Part shown: positions 3,528-58,181 of the stretch, piece after piece
Numbering within the stretch: the stretch's first letter is position 1
Layout of the letters: the number at the start of each line of letters is the position of its first letter
From: a virus
DNA length: 64,000 nt
Direction: 5' to 3' (one strand)
Virus record (IMG/VR): IMGVR_UViG_3300025009_000896
Location: 1-64,000 of that record
Notes under the pieces: generated by a model
The model's database searches: none
Told to the model about the DNA's origin: nothing
The model's input: only the letters and a program-made list of their open reading frames with translations
Made by a program: the position numbers and the translations under genes

Positions 3528-5938
3528 AGAAGCTAATTACTATACTATTATTTATGTCCCTTGGATTTGCCGTAGCAGCACAGGCGGTGGTTACAATCGA
3601 GGGGAAGGACACCACCATAACCGGAGCCGGGGGCTATGCTATTACACGAACGTCGGCTATACTCCTTAGGTTCTTAAATAACATAGTCCTATACACCTAC
3701 ACAGAAGACCCTATAGTTAACTGTGGAACGAACGACTACACCATAGGGCAATCCACAAACCTAAACGATGCCGTTATTAAGGGCAATAGGGTTACGTGGA
3801 CATCTGCAACTGAGACGGGAAGCACGCATGGTCTGATGGCGGGGTATAACACTGGCTATGATATTGCATACAACTATATTGACTCAACTCAGTATGGAGT
3901 GACACACGAAGGTGGATATCCCAACCACACGTCAATGGACAACTCCACGGGAGGTATCTATTACAACATATTTAAAAACAATAACTTCAGCGTCATTGAA
4001 AAGGGGTATGCAGGTACACGTATTTATAATAACACCTTCTACACCAATAAGAACGAGTTTTCAACGTTTATAGGGATTAAGGAGTCAGATACAGGGGGTA
4101 TAACAGAACCATATCCGGTAACCAGTGGCACTAAAGTCTTTAACAACATCTTCTATAATGATGGCACAACTGCATTTCACGCCATATCAGTGGGCGAAGC
4201 CACAGACGACACCCCAGAGGAGATGGATACGGTTGGGCTTGAAATTGATTACAACATTTATTTTTATGAAAATAGCGCTAATAACGAGCCAACCTTCGAG
4301 TTTAACGGAGACAGTAAGACGTGGACGGAATGGAGGGCGTTAGGCTATGACGAACACTCTGTTATACTTGATCCTCAGTTTGTAGACTTCATAGACCTTG
4401 TTCCTGCATCCAAAGACCTAATTGATATAGGCACTAACTTGGGCACTGAGTTTGATGATGGTCTTTCGACTACAGCAACGTGGGTTGCAGGCGTTACCCC
4501 TACGACTGAAGTTCAGGGTGACTTATGGCAAGTGGGGGCAAGGGTATATGAAACAGACGTAATATACTCAGCAACCTATTATGTGTCAACCACGGGGAGC
4601 GACGATAACCCCGGCACCTACGCACTACCATGGGCTACTTGGGGCGAGGCATTCAACTCTGCCTCGGTACAACCCGGAGATACCGTTTACTTCAGGGGCG
4701 GTGTTTACTCAATGACATCCGATAACCTTGCCTATCCTTATAGTGAAGGATCGGGGTATAACGTAGGTCGTGACGGCACAATAGGGGACACCATAAGGTA
4801 TTGGGCCTACCCGGGCGAAACACCTATATTAGACTGTGACAACATTAGCTTAGCAAGTGGGTCTAATAGGGGCATTAACGGTAACGATATAAACTATGTT
4901 CACTTTAAAGGACTAACGGTTAGGAACGTTAATCAATCTGCGGCAGGGAATAGCACCTATGGGTGGATAATAAACGGGGACAACTTAAAGGTTGAAAACT
5001 GTGAGGTATATAATACCGGAGGTAGGGGGTTTTACTCTACGGGTCATGAGGTATATTACCTAAACTGTGACTCACATCATAACTGCGACTCACTCACAGC
5101 GGCACTCCCGGGTAATGATGGTGTGGGATTTCAGAACACCGACCTTACAAATGCTGATGGCAGTATTTACTATTGGAATTGCAGGGCATGGATGAATGGT
5201 GACCAAGGCTTTTCTGCTGTTTCAATAGGCTACTTAGAGTTTGACGGATGTTGGTCGTTTAATAATGGACTTTATCAGGGTGAGGGACATGGGTTTAAAA
5301 TGGGTGCTGTAGGGCTTGAGGGTGAACAGCCTGAGTTTGGCCCGCTGAAGAGAAAGTATACAAACAACGTTGCCGCATTCAATAGGGCTAATGGATGGAC
5401 AACCAACGACAACACAAGCTATCTGGCCAGAACCATGTATGTCTATAACAACATTGCTTACCACAATGGCTACCCTACGGGATGGGGAGGATTGGCTGCG
5501 GGGTTTGTTATTTACAATACGGCTTCGATTGATGCCGAAGAGTTAGACCGCACCTACCACAATAACATTGCCTACGGCAACGAAGATGGCGACACCTTTA
5601 TTCCCGCCGGGGCTTTATATACCCACTCCAACAACTCATGGGACTTAAGCGTAACCGTTTCTGACGCTGACTTTGTGTCAGTGGACAGTACGGGAATAAC
5701 AGCAGCAAGACAAGCAGATGGGTCACTCCCTGCTAATGATTGTTTTACTGACTTTCTGCAATTAGCTACTGGTAGCGAGCTAATTGACGTTGGGGTTAAC
5801 GTTTCTATACCCTACAACGGCGTAGCCCCCGACCTTGGCCCGTTCGAGACTACTGATGCAGGCACCCCAACAAGCATAACGCCATTAAAATATGGCAATA
5901 AGTTCCTAAAAAGTGGAGAAATATTCTTAAAGAGATGA
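3524..5938 (+). CDS. Two-domain right-handed beta-helix (PL9-like) protein with signal peptide
   Basis: Hydrophobic N-terminus MKKLITILLFMSLGFAVAA; YNNTF/FNNIF repeats; second domain YYVSTTGSDDNPGT..PW, GDTVYFRGGVY, GHGFKMG, APDLGPFE. Confidence 0.75.
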   Translation: MKKLITILLFMSLGFAVAAQAVVTIEGKDTTITGAGGYAITRTSAILLRFLNNIVLYTYTEDPIVNCGTNDYTIGQSTNLNDAVIKGNRVTWTSATETGSTHGLMAGYNTGYDIAYNYIDSTQYGVTHEGGYPNHTSMDNSTGGIYYNIFKNNNFSVIEKGYAGTRIYNNTFYTNKNEFSTFIGIKESDTGGITEPYPVTSGTKVFNNIFYNDGTTAFHAISVGEATDDTPEEMDTVGLEIDYNIYFYENSANNEPTFEFNGDSKTWTEWRALGYDEHSVILDPQFVDFIDLVPASKDLIDIGTNLGTEFDDGLSTTATWVAGVTPTTEVQGDLWQVGARVYETDVIYSATYYVSTTGSDDNPGTYALPWATWGEAFNSASVQPGDTVYFRGGVYSMTSDNLAYPYSEGSGYNVGRDGTIGDTIRYWAYPGETPILDCDNISLASGSNRGINGNDINYVHFKGLTVRNVNQSAAGNSTYGWIINGDNLKVENCEVYNTGGRGFYSTGHEVYYLNCDSHHNCDSLTAALPGNDGVGFQNTDLTNADGSIYYWNCRAWMNGDQGFSAVSIGYLEFDGCWSFNNGLYQGEGHGFKMGAVGLEGEQPEFGPLKRKYTNNVAAFNRANGWTTNDNTSYLARTMYVYNNIAYHNGYPTGWGGLAAGFVIYNTASIDAEELDRTYHNNIAYGNEDGDTFIPAGALYTHSNNSWDLSVTVSDADFVSVDSTGITAARQADGSLPANDCFTDFLQLATGSELIDVGVNVSIPYNGVAPDLGPFETTDAGTPTSITPLKYGNKFLKSGEIFLKR

Positions 5939-34716: not shown

Positions 34717-35975
34717 ATGATTACATGGGATAACATAAAAGTAGGAAACATATATAGGGTGAAACAAGATGTGTTTGCTACTACTCCGTGGGTTCATCTA
34801 TTAAAAATAAGGATAACGGGAGTAGATTCAGACAAGAAACTTGTAACGTTTGAGCGATACACAACTGGCTCCATAGACCCCGGACTACAACATGTCTATT
34901 GTGATGATGTTGTTGGTATCAATAAACTCTTTACGGAAGACATGCGAACACACATTAAATATATAAACAAGCGGAGAACAACACAATTTAAGATAAGATG
35001 AGCGAAGAAAAGAAAGATGCCAAGTTTTTTGTTTATAAGTTTTGGCCTAAGTTAATAGAGCGACTGACGGTAGCAAAGGTAGCAATGGAGAACGGGATGG
35101 ACATAAGTGATAAAGACCTATCACTAATAAAAGCACAACACAAACTATACTATAATGGAGAAGTAGAGTTTGATGACAGTTTAAGTTCTGTGGATTCTGC
35201 CATTTCGACCACTCAGGGCGAATTATTCAACAATGTTGTCATGTCCGAGTGCGACGGCACAGGAGTTGTTAAGAACGATGCATAACCAAATAACTTAAAA
35301 AACAATGGCAAGAAAATTTTATTTCTCCGATTCGTTTTTCGATGATTTCATAGACATCTTTACTCTTAGCCCCGATTTAAAGGTTTATAACTCCAATGAG
35401 TATGAACTAAGGATCAAAGAGGGTGTAGTAGCTCGAAGAATCGCAGAAAAGGAGGAGTACATTAAGCGATTAGAGTTGCAAAGAGACATAGAGGCAAAAG
35501 GCTATGACAATCGTATTGCTGCCGTAAAAGACGAGATAGCACAACTAAAAAAGAAACTTTGAGTTGACATTTTACCGACCGACAGGAGAAGGGGAGAATA
35601 GTCTCCCCTTTTTGTTTAACTTAAATTTGGAATTGTCAAAACTAAATGCTACCTTTGCTAACCATGGAACATAAAGTAACAGCCAAAACCGAAAAGTGTC
35701 CTGAATGTGGGGTGTCTTGGGACGCCGGTAGCATCGTAGAGACGTTCAGACAACAAAGGGATAACGGAGAGAAGTGGTTAGGGGGGTGGTCTGACGAGAG
35801 AATTGAGGAGTATGTTAAGATGGCATACGCCCCTCCGTACAGATGGAGTAGGCTAATAGGCATAGAAGACCCTAAAATCTACGATGGCATAAGTTGGTGG
35901 AAGTGCCCTGAGTGTAAAACCATGTGGGATAGGTGGACGGGGAAGGTATGTAAACCCAAGAAGCGCAAGAAATGA
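34717..35975 (+). other. Four hypothetical CDSs (34717-35001, 34998-35285, 35305-35562, 35664-35975 Zn-ribbon)
   Basis: ORF track; TACCTTTG promoters at ~34691 and ~35650. Confidence 0.6.
35586..35613 (+). terminator. Intrinsic terminator
   Basis: AAGGGGAGA-ATAG-TCTCCCCTT followed by Ts. Confidence 0.75.
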
Positions 35976-50159: not shown

Positions 50160-50846
50160 ATGCAATTAAAGGATATAGATGTTTCAAGACTATCATTCGA
50201 CATATTTGATAGCGACTTCACAACGACTATAAAAGAAAAGATACCTGAGTTCAACGAATACGAAGGAGTGATACCTGAGTTAGACGTATTCAGGTTTGTT
50301 GTTATAATGTGGGATATGAAGTCTCCTATGTTACGTGAGGTTGATGACTATTATGCACGTATGTATGCTACCGCATCAATGGTGGGGTTCCCAAGGACTA
50401 AAAACAACTTCAGCAAGGAGGCAGACGAGATAATCATAGGTAAGAATGAGAGCGTGAACAGGATGATAGTAGCCTATACTGCGTACATGGGCGTACCCGA
50501 GTATCAGTACCTAATGGCTTATCAGGCGCTGTTCGCAAGTGAATACGCTAAAGTTTTGAGGGGCAAGGGCGGCAAGGACAGCGACAAGATATTAGAGAAC
50601 GCAAGCGGGAAGGTCACTAAGTTCACGAGGGCTATCTTCGGGTCGGGAGACTACGATGAGTACTCTTTGAGGAGACAGGCGTTGTATCAGAAGATTGAGA
50701 AAGACAAATTAAGATTAAGACCCGAGCAGATCATCAGGGACTTAACGGATAACGGAGATTTGCCTGAAGACTTTAACCCCTACGGTGACTACTCTATCGA
50801 TATAAATAAGGATATTAAGTTCGTTGGTGATGGCAAAGAAGGTTGA
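50160..50846 (+). CDS. Hypothetical protein; terminase small subunit candidate
   Basis: Helical 228-aa ORF overlapping the TerL start. Confidence 0.45.
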   Translation: MQLKDIDVSRLSFDIFDSDFTTTIKEKIPEFNEYEGVIPELDVFRFVVIMWDMKSPMLREVDDYYARMYATASMVGFPRTKNNFSKEADEIIIGKNESVNRMIVAYTAYMGVPEYQYLMAYQALFASEYAKVLRGKGGKDSDKILENASGKVTKFTRAIFGSGDYDEYSLRRQALYQKIEKDKLRLRPEQIIRDLTDNGDLPEDFNPYGDYSIDINKDIKFVGDGKEG

Positions 50847-53166
50847 TTACACCGAACTTTACGTTCCGGCTGACACTGTTTTTGCAATTAATAACCTCGA
50901 TCCAGATCGAAAGACTATCGTTTTGTCTCTGCCCAAACCACCGAACGTAAACACTATTGATAATTTTGGCCTACACCCTGACGAACAGTATTTCAAACGG
51001 TGGAAGACACCTAAGAAGCTATTAACTATTGAAAAAGAGGTCTTAAGAGAACTTCAGGATATTCAAAAGGGCAACAGACAGGAGACTGTAACGGGGTATA
51101 AAATAATTGACAAGTTCTGGGATAAGGTAGAAGAAGAAAGGGACGACTTAGAGGCAGAGATAGACTTCATTAAGAAGCTGTGGTGGCATAGGATGAACGG
51201 CTATTGGTTCTACAACGACGGCAAACCAACGTACATAACCGGAAGGCACTTCATGTTCCTGAACTTCTTTTATCAACCCGATATAACTACTAACGACGGG
51301 TACCCTGAGTACAGAGACAGACACCGGAGGGAGTTTCTATTCAGAGAGTATCTGAGGCACGCTACCGAGACGTTTGCCAAGAGAGATGAAAGAGGGTGGG
51401 CTGTGCCTAATGCTGATGGTAGTTATGATATGATTGATGTGGGGTCGAGAGTAAGCTATGGAGACATACATCCTAAGTCCCGAAGGAACGGTTCTACAAT
51501 GATGGCATTGTGTGATATGATTGAAAGTTCGGAAAGGAGTTTTGGTATCTACTCTACTATAATTTCAAAAGACGGTGAGGCCACCGAGGAGCACTACAAC
51601 CTTAAGCTACTTCCTTCGTGGGTAATGAGGCCGTATTTTCTTAAACCCGTGTGGCAGGGATCGTCCCAACCAACGCAGATAAAATATTTTCCTCCTAAAA
51701 ACTACTACGGCAACGAAGCCCTGATGAGTGTCATTGACTACACCGTATCGGCCTCGGAGACTAAAAAAGATGGGTCTAAGTTTAATGGAGAACTCGTATG
51801 CGATGAGGAGGGCAAGGTTTCTGGATTAGGAGTCAACGTCTTACAGAGGTGGGACGTAAATAAGAACGCACTTGCCCTTGGTGACGGTACTAAGATATTA
51901 GGATACTCTACTCACATCTCAACGGTAGAAGACATCAATGCTGCGGGTATGGCCTTCTTGGATATGCTTGAACTCTCTGACTTTTATCAAAGGGGAGAGA
52001 GTGGGCAGACTACATCAGGTCTTATGGCTCACCTGTATCCTTCTTATGACGGTCAGGAAAACTTCATAGATCGGTATGGTATGTCAGTCATTGACACCCC
52101 CACAGACCGACAGTGCCGCTTATCTCATTCAGCAATCTTCGCTACGCTTAAAAAGGGAGCCAAGCAATATCAACAGGAAAAGAGAGATGACTTCTTAAAG
52201 AAGGGCACCCCTGCTGCTATGCAGTCTTATAGGGCTTATGTTAAGAAGTACCCGTGGAAGACAAGCGAACTCTATATGTCAACAGTCTCAGACATGGGCT
52301 TTGACTATGAGATACTTGACACCCGAATCATGGAGTTGAGGAAGATGAAGTCCTTGGGTAAGATGCCATATAAGGTCGGGAACTTCTACCGTGAGGGAGA
52401 CCCGTTAGAGGGTAGGGTATATTGGAAGACAGAACCCGAAGGGAAGTTTGAGTTATCCATGGAACTTAAGCCTGAAGAAGCAAATCTTAAACGTAAAACT
52501 TTGGTTTGGGATGGCACTAAGATGTCTATGGTGCCAGCTTGGGAGCCTGTTTATAAAACGAGGTTTACCGCAGGGGCTGATCCATTTCGTTTCAGGAACA
52601 GCAAAGACATCACCACTAATAAGCAATCTGATGGCGGAATAGCAGTATTATGGCACGATTTTTCTAAGCCCAATAAGTCAGAGAATAGGAAGTTTGTATT
52701 GTCATATAGGTATAGACCTCATACATTAGAAGAATACTGTGAGGACTGCATAAAAGTGTGTGAGTATTTTGGGGCTATGTGTTATCCCGAAAACAACCTC
52801 ACAGGAGTATATGAGCACTTCATTAAGAGGATGAGGGGCGGATATCTTAAGTACGATCAAGACTCGATCACGGGTCGAGCAAAGGATACCCCCGGATATT
52901 ACGCATCTCCGGGAACAATAAACGACGGGATGTCCCAAATTAAAGATTACATAGTCTTCAATGGAGCAGAAGAAAATCACTTAAGTTTTTTGGAAGAGGT
53001 GCGTGGCATGAGAAGTGTAGATGATTTAACTAATAACGATAGGTTTGCAGCGCACATGGCCAGCTTACTCGGCGCCCTCAGCAGCTACGGCAAGGCATCG
53101 GATTTTATGAATACTCAAACAATAGACCTCGGGAAAGTCTCTTGGTTACAAAAAAGATCATTTTAA
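50830..53166 (+). CDS. terL: Terminase large subunit (crAss-like type)
   Basis: GYWFYN.G.PTYITG.H, K.RR.GST Walker A, CDEEGK Walker B, GADP and ENN...ND nuclease motifs. Confidence 0.9.
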   Translation: MAKKVDYTELYVPADTVFAINNLDPDRKTIVLSLPKPPNVNTIDNFGLHPDEQYFKRWKTPKKLLTIEKEVLRELQDIQKGNRQETVTGYKIIDKFWDKVEEERDDLEAEIDFIKKLWWHRMNGYWFYNDGKPTYITGRHFMFLNFFYQPDITTNDGYPEYRDRHRREFLFREYLRHATETFAKRDERGWAVPNADGSYDMIDVGSRVSYGDIHPKSRRNGSTMMALCDMIESSERSFGIYSTIISKDGEATEEHYNLKLLPSWVMRPYFLKPVWQGSSQPTQIKYFPPKNYYGNEALMSVIDYTVSASETKKDGSKFNGELVCDEEGKVSGLGVNVLQRWDVNKNALALGDGTKILGYSTHISTVEDINAAGMAFLDMLELSDFYQRGESGQTTSGLMAHLYPSYDGQENFIDRYGMSVIDTPTDRQCRLSHSAIFATLKKGAKQYQQEKRDDFLKKGTPAAMQSYRAYVKKYPWKTSELYMSTVSDMGFDYEILDTRIMELRKMKSLGKMPYKVGNFYREGDPLEGRVYWKTEPEGKFELSMELKPEEANLKRKTLVWDGTKMSMVPAWEPVYKTRFTAGADPFRFRNSKDITTNKQSDGGIAVLWHDFSKPNKSENRKFVLSYRYRPHTLEEYCEDCIKVCEYFGAMCYPENNLTGVYEHFIKRMRGGYLKYDQDSITGRAKDTPGYYASPGTINDGMSQIKDYIVFNGAEENHLSFLEEVRGMRSVDDLTNNDRFAAHMASLLGALSSYGKASDFMNTQTIDLGKVSWLQKRSF

Positions 53167-53177
53167 TTTTTTATTAT

Positions 53178-53185
53178 TATCTTTG
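53178..53185 (+). promoter_or_regulatory. Bacteroidetes -7 promoter box of tRNA operon 1
   Basis: TATCTTTG. Confidence 0.8.
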
Positions 53186-53189
53186 TGAC

Positions 53190-53240
53190 ATGAGAATGAA
53201 TCAACATATAGAGCAGCCGATAAACTTACTTGGTGGGTGA
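53190..53240 (+). CDS. Attenuator leader peptide 1, MRMNQHIEQPINLLGG
   Basis: Near-leaderless ORF; CAA CAT ATA GAG CAG CCG ATA match the downstream Gln/His/Ile-UAU/Glu/Pro tRNAs. Confidence 0.8.
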   Translation: MRMNQHIEQPINLLGG

Positions 53241-53261
53241 GGTAACTCTATATTGTATATA

Positions 53262-53291
53262 GCCCTCCCCACAAGGAGGGTTTTTTGTTTT
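53262..53291 (+). terminator. Attenuator terminator 1
   Basis: GCCCTCC-CCACAA-GGAGGGT followed by Ts; competing strand GTGGGTGAGG at 53233-53242. Confidence 0.85.
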
Positions 53292-53292
53292 A

Positions 53293-53377
53293 CGGAGTGT
53301 AGGTCTGTAGCTGGTAGCAGTCCTGCCTTGGAAGCAGGTGGAGCAATCCCTCGTCGGTTCGATCCCGGCCACTCCGA
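53293..53377 (+). tRNA. tRNA-Pro(TGG) with an unusual long variable arm
   Basis: CGGAGTG/CACTCCG; CCTGC-CTTGGAA-GCAGG; GTCGG-TTCGATC-CCGGC. Confidence 0.85.
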
Positions 53378-53382
53378 CTTAT

Positions 53383-53453
53383 TGAGGCTTCGTTTAACGG
53401 TAGGACGCACGGCTTATACCCATGTAATCAGAGTCCAATTCTCTGAGCCTCAA
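53383..53453 (+). tRNA. tRNA-Ile(TAT)
   Basis: TGAGGCT/AGCCTCA; loop CTTATAC; resembles the Ile(GAT) gene at 53871. Confidence 0.8.
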
Positions 53454-53455
53454 CT

Positions 53456-53529
53456 GTGTCAGATGCTCGTATGGACAGAGTGACGGATTGTGACTCCGTT
53501 AGAAGCCAGTTCAAATCTGGTCTGACACC
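53456..53529 (+). tRNA. tRNA-His(GTG)
   Basis: GTGTCAG/CTGACAC, C73; ACGGA-TTGTGAC-TCCGT. Confidence 0.85.
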
Positions 53530-53533
53530 CTAT

Positions 53534-53604
53534 GTTCGGTTCGTCTATCGGTAGGACGGCGGGTTTTCATCCCGTAAAGGCGAGTTCGATTCTCGCACCG
53601 AATA
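53534..53604 (+). tRNA. tRNA-Glu(TTC)
   Basis: GTTCGGT/ACCGAAT; GCGGG-TTTTCAT-CCCGT. Confidence 0.9.
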
Positions 53605-53609
53605 CATAT

Positions 53610-53680
53610 TGCCCTGTCGTATAGAGGTGGTACACATGGCTTTGAACCATGCGGAGAAGGGTCAGTACCTTCCGGGGCAT
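53610..53680 (+). tRNA. tRNA-Gln(TTG)
   Basis: TGCCCTG/CGGGGCA; CATGG-CTTTGAA-CCATG; atypical T-loop GTCAGTA. Confidence 0.8.
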
Positions 53681-53689
53681 CAAAATAAA

Positions 53690-53720
53690 TTTGCATATTA
53701 AATTAAAAGTATTATCTTTG
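53690..53720 (+). promoter_or_regulatory. Bacteroidetes -33/-7 promoter of tRNA operon 2
   Basis: TTTG...TATCTTTG. Confidence 0.85.
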
Positions 53721-53739
53721 CAGTAATTAAGGCATAAGG

Positions 53740-53814
53740 ATGCAAATGGTAAGAAAAAATATGGTGAATATTGACCGCACAGGCGCAACCGTGCGAAAGG
53801 GTATCCCCATATAG
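53740..53814 (+). CDS. Attenuator leader peptide 2, MQMVRKNMVNIDRTGATVRKGIPI
   Basis: 22 of 24 residues are M/V/R/K/N/I/D/T/G/A, the amino acids of the 11 downstream tRNAs. Confidence 0.8.
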   Translation: MQMVRKNMVNIDRTGATVRKGIPI

Positions 53815-53839
53815 TTCTTTGAAAGGATTATTAAGGCGG

Positions 53840-53870
53840 ATGCCCTCACAAAATGGGGGCATTTTTATTT
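53840..53870 (+). terminator. Attenuator terminator 2
   Basis: ATGCCCTCA-CAAAA-TGGGGGCAT followed by Ts; competing AGGGTATCC at 53798-53806 pairs with GGATGCCCT. Confidence 0.85.
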
Positions 53871-53941
53871 TGGCTTATAGTTTAATGGTAGAACGCCTCG
53901 CTGATACCGAGGTAATTCAAGTCCGATTCTTGGTGAGCCAA
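53871..53941 (+). tRNA. tRNA-Ile(GAT)
   Basis: TGGCTTA/TGAGCCA; CCTCG-CTGATAC-CGAGG. Confidence 0.85.
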
Positions 53942-53947
53942 CAACAT

Positions 53948-54018
53948 TGTGGGGTAGAGTAACGGTAACTCGTGGGGCCCATAACCCCAAGCTGAGGGTT
54001 CAACTCCCCCTCCCGCAA
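53948..54018 (+). tRNA. tRNA-Met(CAT), initiator-like
   Basis: TGGGG-CCCATAA-CCCCA with consecutive G-C pairs in the anticodon stem. Confidence 0.8.
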
Positions 54019-54024
54019 CTAATT

Positions 54025-54098
54025 GGGAATGTAGCTCGTATGGAAGTAGCTACGGCCTGTTAAGCCGAAGGTAGAAGGTTCGAGTCCTTCCGTTCCCG
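54025..54098 (+). tRNA. tRNA-Asn(GTT)
   Basis: GGGAATG/CGTTCCC, G73; CGGC-CTGTTAA-GCCG. Confidence 0.85.
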
Positions 54099-54102
54099 CA
54101 AT

Positions 54103-54174
54103 GCTCTTATGGTGTAATGAACAGCACAGGGGTCTTCTAATCCCTTAGTTTGGGTTTGATTCCTAATAGGAGCA
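54103..54174 (+). tRNA. tRNA-Arg(TCT)
   Basis: GCTCTTA/TAGGAGC; loop CTTCTAA. Confidence 0.8.
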
Positions 54175-54179
54175 CAAAT

Positions 54180-54254
54180 GCCTTCGTCGGCCCCTTGGTG
54201 GGGAACCAGACTGTCACTCTGGTAAAACAGACGGATCGTAACCGTTCGGGGGCG
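54180..54254 (+). tRNA. tRNA-Asp(GTC)
   Basis: GCCTTCG/CGGGGGC, G73; CCAGA-CTGTCAC-TCTGG; atypical T-loop ATCGTAA. Confidence 0.75.
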
Positions 54255-54257
54255 CAA

Positions 54258-54332
54258 GGGCTGTTCGTATAGTGGCTATTACTTCTGTTTTGCAAGCAGG
54301 AAACGAGATTTCGATTATCTCACAGTCCACCA
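54258..54332 (+). tRNA. tRNA-Ala(TGC)
   Basis: G3:U70 identity pair; loop TTTGCAA; encoded CCA. Confidence 0.85.
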
Positions 54333-54334
54333 AT

Positions 54335-54406
54335 GCGGGATAGGTGTTGACACATACACAGGAGTCTTCCAAACTTCAGTAGACGGAGGGTTACCGTCAT
54401 CCCGCT
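54335..54406 (+). tRNA. tRNA-Gly(TCC)
   Basis: GCGGGAT/ATCCCGC, U73; loop CTTCCAA; atypical D-loop and T-loop. Confidence 0.75.
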
Positions 54407-54410
54407 CTAA

Positions 54411-54481
54411 GTGATCGTAGCAAATCGGTTATGCCCCGCCCTTTTAAGGCGGTGAGATTGGTTCGACTCCAATCGGTCACA
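54411..54481 (+). tRNA. tRNA-Lys(TTT)
   Basis: GTGATCG/CGGTCAC; CCGCC-CTTTTAA-GGCGG. Confidence 0.85.
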
Positions 54482-54486
54482 CAAAT

Positions 54487-54559
54487 GCGCTCATAGCATA
54501 ATGGAAAGTGTGCAAGGCTACGAACCTTGGCGGTTGGAGTTCGACTCTTCATGGGCGTA
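54487..54559 (+). tRNA. tRNA-Arg(ACG)
   Basis: GCGCTCA/TGGGCGT; CAAGG-CTACGAA-CCTTG. Confidence 0.9.
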
Positions 54560-54564
54560 CTAAT

Positions 54565-54636
54565 GCTCCATAAGCATTGATGGCGATGCGCTAGTCTTGT
54601 AAACTTGAAAGCAGGGTTCGATTCCTTGATGGAGCT
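54565..54636 (+). tRNA. tRNA-Thr(TGT)
   Basis: GCTCCAT/ATGGAGC; loop CTTGTAA. Confidence 0.85.
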
Positions 54637-54692
54637 CAGGTGGAATTTACAAACTATTTGGAGGTTACAAATCTTTTGTATATCTTTGTGTT

Positions 54693-55112
54693 ATGGAAAA
54701 GAAAAAAGAATGTCCTAAATGTGGAATTAAAAAAACAATAGATTATTTTACTAAGTCTAAATCGCGCAAGGATGGGTTTGGGTCTTTTTGCCTAGAGTGT
54801 GGAAGAAAATACGGGCGGCTTCATTATAAAAATAATAAAGCTGAATATATTAAAAGAATATCCTCTAACAAAGAAAGGGTTCGTGATCTTTATATAACTC
54901 TTAAAAAGTCATATGTATGCAGTAAGTGCGGGGACAATAGATGGTATGTGTTAGATTTTCATCACGAAGGAAATAAGGAATCTGACATAGCCCATATGGC
55001 ATCGGAGGGATATTCAATAGATTCCATTAAAAAAGAGATAGAAAAATGTATAGTGTTATGTTCTAATTGCCACAGAGAATTACATTACAAACAAAATGGG
55101 GGCATAGTTTAA
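54693..55112 (+). CDS. HNH endonuclease inserted in the tRNA array
   Basis: CxxC...CxxC, C.KCG...LDFHH...EIEKC.VLCSNCHRE.H; own TATCTTTG at 54681-54688. Confidence 0.85.
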   Translation: MEKKKECPKCGIKKTIDYFTKSKSRKDGFGSFCLECGRKYGRLHYKNNKAEYIKRISSNKERVRDLYITLKKSYVCSKCGDNRWYVLDFHHEGNKESDIAHMASEGYSIDSIKKEIEKCIVLCSNCHRELHYKQNGGIV

Positions 55113-55167
55113 TTGGCAAAACGTTTGTGTTACATACAAGTCATGACGTTCGAGTCGTCTGCCCCTA
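55098..55167 (+). tRNA. tRNA-Val(TAC)
   Basis: GGGGGCA/TGCCCCT; TTTGT-GTTACAT-ACAAG; 4-bp T-stem. Confidence 0.7.
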
Positions 55168-55175
55168 CTAATATT

Positions 55176-55199
55176 GTTCGATTCCAGTAGAGACTACAA
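55176..55199 (+). pseudogene. tRNA 3'-half remnant
   Basis: GTTCGATTCCAG-TAGAGACTA-CAA with no 5' half. Confidence 0.45.
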
Positions 55200-55204
55200 G
55201 TTTA

Positions 55205-55236
55205 TTTGCATATATTAAAAACAATGATTACCTTTG
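55205..55236 (+). promoter_or_regulatory. Bacteroidetes -33/-7 promoter of tRNA operon 3
   Basis: TTTG...TACCTTTG. Confidence 0.85.
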
Positions 55237-55243
55237 CCTTGAA

Positions 55244-55303
55244 ATGAGAAATTGTTGGTCATATAGTTCGTTTTTACTCTTGCTCTCAAAGCGAGGTAGA
55301 TGA
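55244..55303 (+). CDS. Attenuator leader peptide 3, MRNCWSYSSFLLLLSKRGR
   Basis: TCA TAT AGT TCG TTT TTA CTC TTG CTC TCA match the downstream Ser/Tyr/Leu tRNAs. Confidence 0.8.
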   Translation: MRNCWSYSSFLLLLSKRGR

Positions 55304-55325
55304 CCTATATATCCATATAGCATAG

Positions 55326-55356
55326 ACCTCGCCCATAAAGCGGGGTTTTTTATTTT
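55326..55356 (+). terminator. Attenuator terminator 3
   Basis: ACCTCGC-CCATAAA-GCGGGGT followed by Ts; competing GCGAGGT at 55291-55297. Confidence 0.85.
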
Positions 55357-55432
55357 GCTCCGGTAGCCCAATTGGTAGAATGGCAACGGGTTTAAGCCCC
55401 GTTCAGTGTCGGTTCGAATCCGACTCGGAGTA
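55357..55432 (+). tRNA. tRNA-Leu(TAA), short variable loop
   Basis: GCTCCGG/TCGGAGT; ACGGG-TTTAAGC-CCCGT. Confidence 0.85.
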
Positions 55433-55437
55433 CAAAT

Positions 55438-55513
55438 GCCGCAGTAGCAGAATTGGCACGTGCGTTAGTCTTAGAAACTAATAGTTATGTGAGTTCGAAT
55501 CTCACCTGCGGTA
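55438..55513 (+). tRNA. tRNA-Leu(TAG), short variable loop
   Basis: GCCGCAG/CTGCGGT; TTAGT-CTTAGAA-ACTAA. Confidence 0.85.
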
Positions 55514-55517
55514 CTAA

Positions 55518-55609
55518 GGATGGGTGAACCCCAGTTGGCCTAAGGGGGACGGTCTTGAAAACCGTAGGTCGCTCAAAACGGCGTGGGGGTTCGAGTCCCT
55601 CCCCATCCG
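55518..55609 (+). tRNA. tRNA-Ser(TGA)
   Basis: GGATGGG/CCCATCC, G73; ACGGT-CTTGAAA-ACCGT; long variable arm. Confidence 0.85.
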
Positions 55610-55615
55610 CAATAT

Positions 55616-55684
55616 GGGAGTAATTCTTTGGAGAAGACGGGTCTGTAACACCCCAAATAGAAAGTTCGATGCTTCCTACTCCCA
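55616..55684 (+). tRNA. tRNA-Tyr(GTA), minimal (short D-loop, no long arm)
   Basis: GGGAGTA/TACTCCC; GGGT-CTGTAAC-ACCC. Confidence 0.7.
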
Positions 55685-55689
55685 CTAAT

Positions 55690-55774
55690 GGAGGGCTGCT
55701 GTAATGGTATCAGAGCGGTTCGCTAAACCGTCCGTCAGCAATGGCGTGGCAGGGTTCGACTCCCCCGTCCTCCG
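55690..55774 (+). tRNA. tRNA-Ser(GCT)
   Basis: GGAGGGC/GTCCTCC, G73; loop TCGCTAA; long variable arm. Confidence 0.8.
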
Positions 55775-55823
55775 CACTGATTTCTCACATTCACTATCTT
55801 TGTGGATATAAAAATATCCGCAA

Positions 55824-58181
55824 GTGATTAGACTCGAAAAGTATATCGGCGGGATAAGCCCAAGTAGAGACATAGCCCCCGAGAAAAAGACAGAAGTATA
55901 TTGTAGAAAAAATGCCGAGTTTCTGTATGGTCTTTGGTGCGGATCGGCCACAGCTTGGGGCTATGACTCCCTCTCGTTTTTTAATGAGATGCGGCAGTAT
56001 AGCAATGGGGCTCAGGATACAAATCAATATAAAAGTTTTTTAACCAACTCGGGGGCAAATAACTCTGAGACTTTTAGTCTGTATGATAATGATGCAGGCA
56101 TAACGCAACGAGCAAAACGCGACGGATATTATAACCTGCTATGGCAGAATCTTTCTCCTGCGCCGAAGATTCTCAATGCATTACACGGGGCTTTGGGTTC
56201 TTATGATTACGATCTTTACTGCGATACCATAGATGCCAATTCGAGGGGATTGGTAGAGTTTGAAAAGTTTAAGAAGTTTCACGAGGCTCGTGATATAAAG
56301 TGGCAAACGGAATATAAAACTAAGGCAGGTATCCCCGTCGACGAAGACGCTAACTTTCCTAAGACACTTGAGGAATTAGAAGCCTTCTCCGCAAGGGAAG
56401 GGTTTAAACTGAATATAGCCCGTGCTATGCAGAAGGTGCTAAGGCATGGGTTTAATGTCAGCGATTGGGACGGGTCTATCAGGAAGAAGCTGTTAGACGA
56501 CCTTATTACTTTAGGCTACTGCGCCGCAGAAGACTTGTATGACGACGAAGATAGGCTGTTTAAAACACAATGGCTTGACCCCGCAAGGACTGTGATGCAA
56601 TTTTCCCACGAGAAAGATTATTCGGATGCAGAATATGGTGGGCACTTCTCAGAGTGGACAATCTCTAATGTAAGGCGTAAAAGACCTGATCTTACTGAAG
56701 ATGAGTTGTATGCTTTGGCTAAAAACAATAAGGGCAATTTTAACAACCCAACAATACAGTGGGGGGAGAGAACGAGTATGCTTGACATAACAAGTAACTC
56801 TTACCTTTATGATGACTTCAAGGTAGCAGTGTTTAAGGCTTATTGGATAGATACCGACACTTACAAGAGCCTCTACTATAACAACAACTCCGGTCGGGAG
56901 ATGGTCAAAGAGGTGGGGTATGATGAGAAGATAACCCCCTTAACCAAAAACCAAATAGCTAAAGGCAAAAAGCAAGAGGTAAAACAGACTAAAATCAGGG
57001 TTGTTTATCAGTGTTCATGGGTAGTGGGGTCTGAGATATGTTGGGATCATGGTAAGCTATTGATGGGTGCAAGGCCGCAGCCGTCTAAGCCTAAGATACC
57101 TATCCACGTTGAGCAGTTGCTACAACCTTCTATTGTCTACAGGCTTAAGCCTATCTTAGACTCAATAGCCTTGACGTGGCTACAGCATCAGAACTCTATG
57201 GCTAAGATGATAGAGAAGGGCTATGCCGTGAATATGAGCATGTTGATGAATGTAACGATGAATGGGAAGGATGCATTAGACCCTGCTGGTGTTTTAAATA
57301 TGTGGAAGCAGACGGGGATTCTACCTTATATGTATGGTGGGGCTAATGGGCAATACCCGGGTGGGGCCGCTATTCCCGTCACTCCTATTGACGGAGGATT
57401 AGGGAATAGAATACAGGAGACCGCTATGGCCTTAGAGACTAACTTCAAGCTAATTGAGGAGATAGTGGGGATAAACCCTGTTGCAATGGGGTCTACTCCT
57501 ACTAAAGACTCACAGGTAGGTACTACCGAGATGGCGATGCAGGCCACATCCAACGTGCTTAAACCTATAGTAGAGGGTATGTTCGAGATCAAGCAGAGTC
57601 TTGGTTCAAGTTTAATGTTAAGAACACAGATAGGTCTTAGGGTAGATAAAGACATAAGAGATGCCTATGCAGGTATTATCTCTCCTTCTGATATTAAGTC
57701 GTTGGTTTTGGCAGAACACAATAGTGTTCAGTATGGCATTAGCCTTAAGGCCAAGCCTGATGATAAACGTAAAGCTACGCTGCTTAACTTCATTACTCTT
57801 GAAGTAGAGAAGGGCACATTGGGTTCACCGGAAGGAATGTACTTTGCCGAAAGATTAGAATCGGGTGCAGACATGATAGAACTCCGTCAGGAGATAGCCT
57901 ATGCAATAGAAAAAGGACAGCAGCGTAAGATGCAAGAGTCGTTGGCTACTATCCAAGAGCAGAATAAGGGTATGCTTGAAAACGAACAGCTTAAGGGGCA
58001 GAACGAACAGGCTAAGATCAATGCCGAGGGACAGGTGAAGATGGCTGAAGAAGCCCTAAGAGGGGATATAAAGCATAAGTTACAGAGACAACAGAATAAT
58101 GCAGAATTAATGAGCAGACTCTTTGATGATGTGGCTGCTGAAAAAGAAATAAAGAATGACAACACCAGAAGACAGGCTTAA
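55824..58181 (+). CDS. Portal protein
   Basis: 785 aa, between TerL and scaffold/MCP; R.YS.G.QD..QYK, I.EIVGIN....GSTP, Gln-rich helical C-terminus; promoter at ~55796. Confidence 0.8.
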   Translation: MIRLEKYIGGISPSRDIAPEKKTEVYCRKNAEFLYGLWCGSATAWGYDSLSFFNEMRQYSNGAQDTNQYKSFLTNSGANNSETFSLYDNDAGITQRAKRDGYYNLLWQNLSPAPKILNALHGALGSYDYDLYCDTIDANSRGLVEFEKFKKFHEARDIKWQTEYKTKAGIPVDEDANFPKTLEELEAFSAREGFKLNIARAMQKVLRHGFNVSDWDGSIRKKLLDDLITLGYCAAEDLYDDEDRLFKTQWLDPARTVMQFSHEKDYSDAEYGGHFSEWTISNVRRKRPDLTEDELYALAKNNKGNFNNPTIQWGERTSMLDITSNSYLYDDFKVAVFKAYWIDTDTYKSLYYNNNSGREMVKEVGYDEKITPLTKNQIAKGKKQEVKQTKIRVVYQCSWVVGSEICWDHGKLLMGARPQPSKPKIPIHVEQLLQPSIVYRLKPILDSIALTWLQHQNSMAKMIEKGYAVNMSMLMNVTMNGKDALDPAGVLNMWKQTGILPYMYGGANGQYPGGAAIPVTPIDGGLGNRIQETAMALETNFKLIEEIVGINPVAMGSTPTKDSQVGTTEMAMQATSNVLKPIVEGMFEIKQSLGSSLMLRTQIGLRVDKDIRDAYAGIISPSDIKSLVLAEHNSVQYGISLKAKPDDKRKATLLNFITLEVEKGTLGSPEGMYFAERLESGADMIELRQEIAYAIEKGQQRKMQESLATIQEQNKGMLENEQLKGQNEQAKINAEGQVKMAEEALRGDIKHKLQRQQNNAELMSRLFDDVAAEKEIKNDNTRRQA

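Follow-up and report, generated by a model that had tools for sequence, protein, structure and literature searches.

A candidate leader-peptide attenuator preceding a block of tRNA genes in an uncultured phage

Directly upstream of a block of phage tRNA genes we describe a short region, referred to here as unit 2, which displays the full anatomy of a leader-peptide attenuator. Its leader is written in the codons that are read by the tRNAs of the block, and the block is therefore probably made only when those codons are read slowly. We consider it likely, on the basis of codon content and predicted RNA folds, that unit 2 acts as a ribosome-mediated (leader-peptide) transcription attenuator providing feedback control of tRNA supply. 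An attenuator of this kind had been suggested in a first-pass annotation of the sequence; its account of the anatomy, the isoacceptor match and the OR-gate logic of the folds stands, while a role for its 1:2 helix is less evident in this phage and its view of the block as one operon proved loose.

Organization of the tRNA units

The window, by which we mean the whole 64-kb stretch of DNA analysed here, is part of the 83-kb record of an uncultured phage. It contains unit 2 and two sister units, unit 1 upstream and unit 3 downstream, whose features are collected in Table 1. Promoters were sought in the window with the motif TTTG-N17-21-TAnnTTTG, which we take to be the consensus of Bacteroides and Flavobacterium promoters and on which the label Bacteroidota-type used here is based. 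The motif has 15 matches compared with 1.62 expected, a number reached by 0 of 100 shuffles, and the unit 2 site (TTTG, a spacer of about 19 nt and TAnnTTTG) fits this presumed pattern. A short ORF with its own start and stop lies between the motif and the tRNA genes, and an independent terminator scan returned the same stem-loop (53838-53864) ahead of the first tRNA. The end of the terminator stem is separated by only 6 nt from the start of tRNA-Ile(GAT), such that the promoter reaches the tRNA genes only by way of the terminator; as the tRNA begins right after the T-tract, there is no space for a second promoter.

Table 1. Features of unit 2, its tRNA block and the sister units (positions in the window)
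Feature	Position	Strand	Details	Evidence
Unit 1	53178..53680	+	-7 box 53178-85; leader 53190-53240 (MRMNQHIEQPINLLGG); terminator 53261-53282; tRNAs Pro(TGG), Ile(TAT), His, Glu, Gln(TTG)	
Unit 2 promoter motif	53690..53720	+	TTTG (53690-53693), 19-nt spacer, TATCTTTG (53713-53720)	motif scan
Unit 2 leader ORF	53740..53814	+	MQMVRKNMVNIDRTGATVRKGIPI, 24 codons plus TAG	
Unit 2 putative sensing codons 5-17	53752..53790	+	RKNMVNIDRTGAT	composition scan, ribosome-masked folds
Unit 2 1:2 structure	53759..53812	+	outer helix 53759-64/53807-12; inner hairpin 53776-80/53791-95	
Unit 2 antiterminator	53798..53846	+	region 2 (53798-53808) with region 3 (53835-53846)	
Unit 2 intrinsic terminator	53838..53870	+	stem-loop 53838-53864 (core 53840-53862), T-tract to 53870	
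Ten tRNA genes	53871..54637	+	Ile(GAT), Met(CAT), Asn(GTT), Arg(TCT), Asp(GTC), Ala(TGC), atypical Gly(TCC), Lys(TTT), Arg(ACG), Thr(TGT)	
Gly(TCC), atypical	about 54336-54408	+		relaxed ARAGORN threshold
HNH endonuclease insertion	54657..55112	+	ORF 54693-55112; own promoter motif 54657-54688	phrog_2255, E 1.2e-32
tRNA-Val(TAC)	55097..55168	+	overlaps 3' end of HNH ORF	
Unit 3	55205..55775	+	promoter 55205-55236; leader 55244-55303 (MRNCWSYSSFLLLLSKRGR); terminator 55324-55348	
Unit 3 tRNAs	within 55205..55775	+	Leu(TAA), Leu(TAG), Ser(TGA), Tyr(GTA, weak), Ser(GCT)	

The block behind unit 2 had been presented as a single operon of 11 tRNA genes. Ten of the 11 (Ile-GAT, Met, Asn, Arg-TCT, Asp, Ala, Lys, Arg-ACG, Thr and Val) are recovered by ARAGORN at default settings, while Gly(TCC) appears at a relaxed threshold only and has an atypical T-loop. 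The latter gene has no Rfam tRNA match at E<=1; its sequence folds into a cloverleaf whose anticodon loop carries UCC, and it aligns with the Gly(TCC) genes of relatives. Rfam also listed no match for the tRNA-Asp of this block. The notion of one operon proved loose, because an HNH endonuclease gene, preceded by a promoter motif of its own, stands between tRNA-Val and the other ten genes; transcription of tRNA-Val from this motif is also possible. Val adjoins Thr in relatives without the HNH insertion, and the arrays of relatives have gaps of 396-652 nt at different sites. This comparison covered the window, L052 and a dozen of the 21 metagenome loci (14 of 23 sources).

Leader codons and the tRNAs that they match

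Translation of the leader ORF confirmed that it contains all amino acids of the downstream set. Codons 5-17 hold each of the ten amino acids of the tRNA block and no others, with every tRNA species polled by one or two codons within this core. The arginine and isoleucine codons singled out in the first-pass annotation were found as AGA (codon 5), CGC (13) and CGA (19), and as ATT (11) and ATC (22), with a further isoleucine codon, ATA, at position 24. How improbable such a composition is depends on the criterion. The presence of all ten amino acids in a 24-mer, a chance calculation that the annotation had proposed, gives P=0.064, and requiring in addition that no fewer than 21 of 23 residues belong to the set lowers this to 2.6e-4, while the stricter criterion of a 13-mer that is both set-only and set-complete gives about 1.1e-5 per window. 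Across the 64 kb, 4 of 127,924 six-frame windows were 13-mers of this kind, all four of them inside the unit 2 leader. Chance was set aside as a source of the match, its probability being about 1e-5 per window or lower.

The sister leaders are comparably rare in the same type of scan, with set-matching windows numbering 2 of 127,966 for unit 1 and 1 of 127,930 for unit 3, and the cores of the three leaders jointly cover all 20 amino acids. The ATG of the unit 1 and unit 3 leaders lies only 4 and 7 nt, respectively, past the -7 box. The unit 3 leader holds Cys, Trp and Phe codons, which are accounted for by a relative with a 41%-identical TerL, in which Trp, Phe and Cys tRNAs occur downstream of the unit 3 leader. 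Furthermore, the match extends to isoacceptors: the AGR and CGY codons of unit 2 leaders fit Arg(TCT) and Arg(ACG), and isoleucine is split between ATT in the unit 2 leader and ATA in the unit 1 leader that precedes Ile(TAT). The fit requires that GGC and ACC in the unit 2 core and CTC in unit 3 be read through four-way U34 wobble by UCC, UGU and UAG anticodons, and codons 2-4, which lie inside the computed stall-sensitive range, encode residues from outside the set, namely Q in the window and Q, L, S, H or E in relatives.

Conservation was assessed in an alignment of 18 distinct unit 2 sequences out of 23 instances, and for unit 3 in 8 of 10 distinct sequences, leaving out L054, the extract of which ran into a missed tRNA, and L069. 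Three loci of equal length (L015, L053 and L055) are apparently a single contig. These relatives are close, with much of unit 2 conserved at the nucleotide level, and were retrieved by a search pattern in which ten unit 2 core residues were fixed, so that the conservation of MVNIDRTGAT is partly ascertainment. At positions where the pattern was more permissive, all 18 leaders use ATT as the core Ile codon though ATH was allowed, and all 18 use CGY at codon 13 though MGN was allowed. AGR occurs at codon 5 or 6 in the 17 leaders that start with ATG, and upstream in frame in the 18th. Similarly, the core Ile codon of unit 1 is ATA in 11 of 11 leaders, all before Ile(TAT), and the unit 1 core QHIEQP varies at third positions only, with both Gln codons used in each of the 11 and Pro written with all four of its codons across the set. 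The unit 2 stop falls at the same aligned position in all 18 distinct relatives and is written as TGA (10), TAG (5) or TAA (3), while codon order is permuted with content kept, as RK/KR in unit 2 and as SFL/LFS/FSL in unit 3. The fixed stop with three different stop codons, the synonymous changes and the codon permutations suggest that the leader is translated.

A portal-based locus search of viral contigs returned no relative, and searches of GenBank phages with the whole tRNA region yielded matches at the tRNA level only, as did a search with the region of the cultured Tenacibaculum phage Gundel_1. Like unit 2, Gundel_1 has a promoter followed by a short ORF whose codons specify the amino acids of the next tRNA block, with a terminator right before the first tRNA. 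Unlike in the phage studied here, its tRNAs are partitioned into two blocks and its leader sequences are unrelated; its two leaders match their own blocks. In leader B the fit requires a tRNA with a CAT anticodon to read ATA, and a His codon is present though the block has no His tRNA. The available sections of the Gundel_1 description give only the number of tRNA genes on this subject (PMC8776804). As this cultured phage carries the same kind of device, the idea is testable at the bench.

Alternative folds and the proposed control of tRNA supply

Both of the downstream pairings suggested from the sequence were borne out. The 2:3 pairing joins 53798-53806 with 53838-46 through nine core pairs present in 18 of 18 distinct relatives, and the 3:4 terminator is paired in 99% of cells, compared with 37-63% when its partner is slid. 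The antiterminator, which shares a strand with the terminator, is 78.6% paired as against 45-57% in slid controls; its region 2 corresponds to the Lys-Gly-Ile-Pro codons of the leader, and it encloses an inner hairpin (53811-53831) that spans the leader stop codon. Two-sided compensatory changes are scarce, being seen at 3 of 20 pairs in the antiterminator, 1 of 11 in the terminator and 1 of 7 in unit 3. The 1:2 helix is likewise present and conserved, its outer part being paired in 100% of cells, where any change affects one side alone, and its inner part in 76.7%, where one pair is CG in 9 sequences, UA in 5 and unpaired in 4. However, a role as anti-antiterminator is not evident in this phage: the untranslated unit 2 RNA is predicted to prefer the antiterminator, with a terminator probability (Pterm) of 0.23 in the absence of a ribosome, and the reading of the 1:2 helix as an effective safeguard here was set aside. 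When no ribosome is present, the terminator is favoured (Pterm at least 0.8) in the predicted folds of 13 of 18 relatives.

The effect of translation was modelled by ribosome-masked folding, in which the footprint of the ribosome is blocked at each A-site codon and Pterm is predicted. In the window, Pterm is at most 0.15 for codons 2-15, rises through 0.40 at codon 16 and 0.71 at codon 17, and lies at 0.82-0.93 for all positions between codon 18 and the stop inclusive, with a footprint change of 3 nt shifting the boundary of the switch by one codon. The predicted stall-sensitive codons coincide with those that match tRNAs, and the OR gate envisaged in the first-pass annotation fits these folds in that a hold at any one of codons 2-15 suffices to keep Pterm low. 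None of 150 dinucleotide shuffles matches the stall/stop contrast of unit 2, and the contrasts of units 1 and 3 are each matched by 2 of 150. All 18 distinct unit 2 leaders combine a lowest core Pterm of at most 0.3 with a Pterm of at least 0.6 at the stop. Equilibrium folding was discarded as a sole criterion, as the switch that it predicts is weak or missing in 7 of 11 unit 1 relatives and 1 of 10 unit 3 relatives, and as it also fails for the two leaders of Gundel_1. For this reason a kinetic proxy was added, a crude measure of whether the 5' arm of the terminator is sequestered before its 3' arm exists; for unit 3 the contrast in this proxy is matched by 53 of 200 shuffles.

From this anatomy we infer translation of the leader, its coupling to the polymerase, a response to tRNA level and the physiological trigger. 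Transcription would begin at the Bacteroidota-type promoter, with a ribosome translating the 24-codon leader close behind the polymerase. If all codons were read fast, the ribosome would come to lie at codons 18-25 and cover region 2, upon which the terminator would form and transcription would end 6 nt short of the first tRNA. One slow codon, or a slow run overall, would leave region 2 free to pair with the 5' arm of the terminator, and the resulting antiterminator would let the polymerase read on into the tRNA block. Since the product would be the very tRNAs that speed those same codons, the arrangement would amount to negative feedback on tRNA supply, and since the sister units would handle the remaining amino acids likewise, three sensors would share out the genetic code.

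The same hardware might instead serve as an alarm against host defences that target tRNAs, such as anticodon nucleases or tRNA depletion, a role that we judge unlikely. With single codons per tRNA, a mild shortage would go unsensed and the device would fire only on severe loss of one tRNA, in keeping with the polling of each tRNA by only one or two codons and with the folding model, in which one stall anywhere in the core suffices. Against this, slow decoding summed over 13 codons could sense a mild shortage, and a timer or race of this kind is equally compatible with the data as a severe-loss trigger. Moreover, family searches of the 83-kb record found no RtcB or RNA_ligase family gene, and there is no sign of defence in the neighbourhood. 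To our knowledge, the anticodon nucleases described so far cut the tRNAs of few amino acids, whereas all 20 are polled here, and plain supply feedback accounts for the same features.

We assign far lower probability to the view that unit 2 is a general sensor of translation status, for example of host shut-off, in which codon content is secondary. As the untranslated RNA of this phage is predicted to read through, loss of translation alone would turn the block on; yet the untranslated RNA of the 13 relatives noted above is predicted to terminate, and such a sensor leaves unexplained the three disjoint amino-acid sets matching their own tRNA blocks, the ATA/ATT split between two Ile isoacceptors and the different leaders of a differently partitioned phage. 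More improbable still is a translation-independent element with an incidental ORF, be it a small RNA or a structured leader whose terminator is leaky, or a T-box-like RNA that binds tRNA anticodons directly. The unit 2 RNA is strongly structured (z -2.7), which together with the extensive nucleotide-level conservation would suit such an element, but the fixed start, the fixed stop with its three stop codons, the third-position variation and the in-frame codon permutations speak against an incidental ORF, as does the improbability of its composition. Unit 2 has no T-box or other cis-regulatory match in Rfam at E<=1, and a T-box-like element was set aside because the T-box covariance model gave no hit in 53100-55900 at E<=1. 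Ribosome-mediated feedback on tRNA supply thus remains our preferred reading.

Relation to known attenuators and significance

Attenuators that sense more than one amino acid through a leader are established in enterobacteria, where thrL responds to Thr and Ile and ilvL and ivbL to Ile, Leu and Val, alongside trpL, hisL, pheL and leuL. Unit 2 resembles them in its promoter-proximal short ORF, in putative regulatory codons cognate to the supplied product, in the predicted exclusive choice between an antiterminator and an intrinsic terminator, in the predicted covering of region 2 by a ribosome at the stop codon and in the putative sensing of several amino acids. In contrast to these systems, the genes under putative control encode tRNAs and not enzymes; ten amino acids (eleven isoacceptors) are represented by one or two codons each instead of by runs for one to three amino acids; and the device is borne by a phage, lies behind a Bacteroidota-type promoter and belongs to a group of three units that divide all 20 amino acids. 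There is no sequence homology to the enterobacterial leaders; only unit 3 gives a hit, scoring 27.7 bits against the Rfam Trp_leader family (RF00513), under the gathering score of 41.

The pheST attenuator, with its pheM leader, controls an aminoacyl-tRNA synthetase for one amino acid in a cellular genome. It shares with unit 2 the setting of a component of the translation apparatus by the reading speed of cognate leader codons, whereas in unit 2 the component would be a set of phage tRNAs. T-boxes similarly monitor tRNA status and choose between antiterminator and terminator upstream of translation-related genes, but they bind uncharged tRNA directly, without a ribosome or ORF, while the sensor of unit 2 would be a translated ORF. 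A further parallel is offered by leaderless polycysteine short ORFs of mycobacteria, in which, according to the available part of the account, a stalled ribosome remodels the downstream RNA (bioRxiv 10.1101/834739). Units 1 and 3 resemble these in being leaderless or nearly so; as far as that account goes, the mycobacterial ORFs differ in freeing a ribosome binding site for control of translation, in sensing cysteine only and in regulating metabolic genes.

Our search of the literature found no description of attenuators preceding tRNA genes. Textbook leader-peptide attenuation concerns genes of amino-acid biosynthesis and one synthetase operon; here the same logic would close the loop on the tRNA genes themselves, a slow codon switching on the gene of its own tRNA. 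A more far-reaching proposal, which we offer tentatively and hold to be somewhat doubtful, is that the three leaders form a code-wide closed-loop controller, in which each tRNA of the lineage is polled by its own codon, decoding speed is gauged for each isoacceptor separately and the deficient third of the code is topped up, which doubles as a counter-defence alarm restoring tRNAs cut or depleted by host anticodon nucleases, and whose leaders record lost tRNA genes (here Cys, Trp and Phe).

Feedback attenuation at unit 2 would give a concrete, testable explanation of how tRNA arrays are regulated in phages and of why these arrays are split into blocks. It would also provide a natural sensor that takes several inputs on tRNA availability and resolves isoacceptors, which may be reusable as a reporter, and a rule for annotation, whereby a short ORF and terminator ahead of a tRNA block would predict the content of the block and can expose tRNAs that have been lost.

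The tRNA array and its three leaders

The first 64 kb of the 83-kb virus record carry a 2.6-kb array of tRNA genes between the large terminase and portal genes, organized as three units in which a short leader ORF and a terminator precede a tRNA block (see table). Sequencing runs containing this DNA bear the label groundwater metagenome, a possible source. All 17 Rfam tRNA matches in the whole 83-kb record lie within 53293-55609; ARAGORN reports 18 tRNA genes by default, and a relaxed threshold also recovers Gln(TTG), Gly(TCC) and Tyr(GTA). The block of unit 2, the unit under study, encodes Ile(GAT), Met, Asn, Arg(TCT), Asp, Ala, Gly(TCC), Lys, Arg(ACG) and Thr, followed by an HNH gene and then Val(TAC). 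Its atypical Gly gene folds into a cloverleaf and is homologous to the Gly(TCC) of relatives. Anticodons of four weak tRNAs (Gly and Tyr here; Tyr and Cys in the Tenacibaculum phage discussed below) were assigned through relaxed ARAGORN or our own reading.

Features of the tRNA array and its surroundings
Feature	Position	Details
Large terminase gene	50824-53166	phrog_6681, E 7e-58
Unit-1 leader	53190-53240	MRMNQHIEQPINLLGG; upstream of Pro(TGG), Ile(TAT), His, Glu, Gln
tRNA-Pro	53293-53378	86 nt long
Unit-2 promoter	53690-53693, 53713-53720	motif match: TTTG, 19-nt spacer, TATCTTTG
Unit-2 leader ORF	ATG 53740, TAG 53812-53814	24 codons
Unit-2 antiterminator	53798-53808 with 53835-53846	long hairpin enclosing an inner stem-loop
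Unit-2 terminator	53838-53864	stem-loop; T-tract to 53870
tRNA-Ile(GAT)	from 53871
tRNA-Asp	54180-54255	no Rfam tRNA match
tRNA-Gly(TCC)	54336-54408	missed by default ARAGORN; no Rfam match; odd T-loop
HNH endonuclease gene	54657-55112	own promoter motif; inserted between tRNA-Thr and tRNA-Val, overlapping the Val start
Unit-3 leader	55244-55303	MRNCWSYSSFLLLLSKRGR; upstream of Leu(TAA), Leu(TAG), Ser(TGA), Tyr, Ser(GCT) at 55357-55775
tRNA-Tyr	55616-55684	26.8 bits, gathering score 29
Portal gene	55824-58181	phrog_6547, E 3e-51

Only 6 nt separate the end of the terminator stem from tRNA-Ile(GAT), so the unit-2 promoter gets to its tRNA genes solely through terminator read-through. The promoter motif, TTTG-N17-21-TAnnTTTG, which we take to be the Bacteroidota consensus, has 15 matches in the window where 1.62 are expected, a count reached by 0 of 100 shuffles, and this excess points to a host among the Bacteroidota. 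Most matches lie 15-25 nt upstream of an ATG; three (at 35626, at the HNH gene and at unit 3) stand only 4-7 nt before one, a spacing suggestive of leaderless mRNAs. The leader ATG follows the -7 box by 4 nt in unit 1 and 7 nt in unit 3, which suggests the same for these two units.

Gaps of 396-652 nt occur elsewhere in the arrays of relatives L052, L054, L060, L061, L064, L065 and L074; their differing places, together with the HNH insertion in the window, suggest mobile endonuclease genes hopping inside tRNA arrays. Some terminase homologues (P0005, P0010, P0030, P0031, P0033 and P0111) reach about 1160-1190 aa with intein/homing-endonuclease domains (PF05204, PF05203, PF14528); the 780-aa terminase of the window has none of these.

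Codon content of the leaders and its conservation

The first-pass annotation stated that leader 2 holds all ten amino acids of its block, which is correct but a weak criterion, as a random Met-started 24-mer does so with P=0.064; in the test of composition by chance that it proposed, requiring in addition that no fewer than 21 of the 23 residues belong to the set lowered P to 2.6e-4. Codons 5-17, RKNMVNIDRTGAT, consist exclusively of set amino acids with all ten represented (analytic P ~1.1e-5 per 13-mer), and such 13-mers occupy 4 of the 127,924 six-frame windows of the 64 kb, all within leader 2. Six-mers of exactly the five amino acids of unit 1 number 2 in 127,966, both in leader 1, and CWSYSSFLLLLS of leader 3 is the sole 12-mer of exactly {C,W,S,Y,F,L} (1 of 127,930). 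Jointly the three cores cover all 20 amino acids, the sole overlap being Ile, encoded by ATA in unit 1 versus ATT in unit 2.

Retrieval with aligned TerL homologues gave 50 viral loci, tRNAs being present in 3, and a pattern back-translated from ten core residues identified 2 viral and 21 metagenome loci. This pattern fixes MVNIDRTGAT at the amino-acid level, and only pattern-free features were taken as evidence; the relatives are close and partly ascertained through the unit-2 core, their units 1 and 3 not being ascertained by their own sequence. Unit order is identical in all 23 pattern-found loci, and the same three units lie upstream of the terminase in L015, whose TerL is 41% identical.

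Across the 18 distinct unit-2 leaders the stop occupies a single aligned position (TGA 10, TAG 5, TAA 3), the core Ile is always ATT where the pattern permitted ATH, and the codon-13 Arg is always CGC or CGT where it permitted MGN. AGA/AGG and AAA/AAG stand immediately 5' in variable order (RK, KR, RKK), and codons 2-4 and 20 vary freely, out-of-set residues included. The unit-1 core QHIEQP is unchanged in 11 of 11 distinct leaders. Within it only third codon positions vary: His is CAT or CAC, Pro appears in all four CCN forms, and each leader uses CAA once and CAG once, in either order. Amino-acid changes do occur in its flanks. The unit-3 codons following SYS read S-F-L, L-F-S or F-S-L. Conservation of codon content without order is hard to explain by peptide function or RNA sequence alone.

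In the unit 1 of L058, L063, L065 and L074, a CAT-anticodon tRNA (Met according to ARAGORN) takes the place of the Ile(TAT) of other relatives; of these loci only L074 yielded a unit-1 leader, which retains ATA in its core, and the tRNA is probably an ATA-reading tRNA-Ile2. In L015 the last tRNAs of unit 3 are Trp(CCA), Phe(GAA) and Cys(GCA), as we read the anticodon loops and as relaxed ARAGORN also indicates on this contig and on others; this accounts for the Cys, Trp and Phe codons of leader 3 in the window. An Rfam tRNA search of the whole 83-kb record detected no Cys, Trp or Phe tRNA, and since tRNAs for all three close unit 3 in relatives, leader 3 seems to be a record of lost genes for them.

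Predicted alternative folds and ribosome position

Terminator-helix probability was computed, once the 3' arm was present, under a thermodynamic folding model in which each codon in turn was placed in the A site and an assumed ribosome footprint, A-15 to A+13, was masked. For unit 1 the predicted value is 0.93 with no ribosome, 0.04-0.18 with the ribosome at codons 4-9 (NQHIEQ), 0.71 at Pro codon 10 and 0.90-0.93 later; for unit 2, 0.23 with no ribosome, at most 0.15 at codons 2-15, 0.40 at codon 16, 0.71 at codon 17 and 0.82-0.93 from codon 18 to the stop; for unit 3, 0.94 with no ribosome, 0.41-0.62 at codons 3-5, at most 0.13 at codons 6-12 and 0.92-0.94 from codon 13. The predicted stall-sensitive range and the set-matching codons therefore share their 3' edge in all three leaders, an edge that shifts by one codon when the footprint changes by 3 nt. 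Out of 150 dinucleotide shuffles of the leader body, this contrast was reached by 2 for unit 1, 0 for unit 2 and 2 for unit 3. Among relatives, a lowest core probability of at most 0.3 with at least 0.6 at the stop was found in 18/18 for unit 2, 9/10 for unit 3 and only 4/11 for unit 1. A kinetic proxy, scoring whether the terminator 5' arm is sequestered before 3' arm synthesis, switched in 9/11, 9/18 and 7/10 (units 1, 2 and 3), with shuffle controls of 9, 2 and 53 of 200, the last of which makes it non-discriminating for unit 3.

In the alignment of 18 distinct unit-2 sequences, nine core antiterminator pairs form throughout, with one-sided changes only (U-G/C-G 13:5, U-A/U-G 14:4); double-sided changes sit in the inner hairpin, which aligns poorly. 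Pairing in the terminator amounts to 99%, compared with 37-63% for slid partners, one pair changing from AU to GC in two sequences. The helix proposed in the first-pass annotation between the first two leader segments is also present, its outer part 100% paired and its inner part with one covarying pair (CG 9, UA 5, unpaired 4). In unit 3, where 8 of the 10 distinct sequences were aligned, pairing reaches 100% in each of the three corresponding helices, one pair being CG in 5, UA in 2 and UG in 1. Support from covariation is consistent but thin, as these sequences are close, and few changes are compensatory.

An independent phage family and the proposed feedback

One tRNA-level match of the array came from Tenacibaculum phage Gundel_1 (MT732474.1), a cultured flavobacterial phage of Tenacibaculum sp. 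AHE14PA in which two leader and terminator units (3860-5680) precede two tRNA blocks partitioned differently from the window; its GenBank record annotates neither leader, nor two tRNA-like genes. Leader A, MKTKLYSYSCFSSWFKNRAG, and its terminator stand before Trp, Phe, Ser(TGA), a tRNA we read as Cys(GCA) and Ser(GCT); upstream lies a tRNA-like gene read as Tyr(GTA), 82.9% identical to the window Tyr. Leader B, MKTNNLHIQQNNLPVFLEGFLYM, and its terminator precede an HNH gene, then Pro, Gln, a CAT-anticodon tRNA, Asn and Leu(TAG). Within the 8-kb locus, YSYSCFSSWF is the sole 10-mer of exactly {Y,W,F,S,C} (1/16,094) and NNLHIQQNNLP the sole 11-mer that covers {P,Q,I,N,L} and has no more than one residue from outside this set (1/16,088); counting the CAT tRNA as Met leaves 0 of 16,088 qualifying windows for leader B. 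The kinetic proxy falls directly after each core, and the equilibrium measure gives no switch for these leaders. The two phage families thus assign Asn and Leu(TAG) to different blocks, and the leaders track the blocks.

Unit 2 would work like the multivalent leader-peptide attenuators thrL and ilvL and has the short ORF, cognate codons, antiterminator and terminator of that class, but is not homologous to any Rfam leader family; a T-box identity was rejected by Rfam search. Across 55250-55353, unit 3 matches the entire Rfam model of the tryptophan operon leader, though below threshold (27.7 bits against a gathering score of 41, E 0.0078). A full-text literature search, with most subscription journals outside its reach, returned no description of attenuators in front of tRNA genes.

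Unit 2 has its parts in order, a conserved isoacceptor-level match between leader codons and tRNAs, and predicted alternative folds. In operation, the leader would be translated by a ribosome close behind the polymerase, and slow decoding would leave 53798-53808 free to pair with the terminator 5' arm. The control region is regulatory throughout for the set, with any single tRNA polled by 1 or 2 of 13 codons, and the device should for this reason be set off either when a single tRNA is strongly depleted or when decoding by many of them slows moderately; the trigger envisaged in the first-pass annotation, severe tRNA loss (for example by nuclease cleavage) rather than mild starvation, would be one of these two possibilities. 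As the output would be the very tRNAs that read the polled codons, the loop would constitute negative feedback on tRNA supply.
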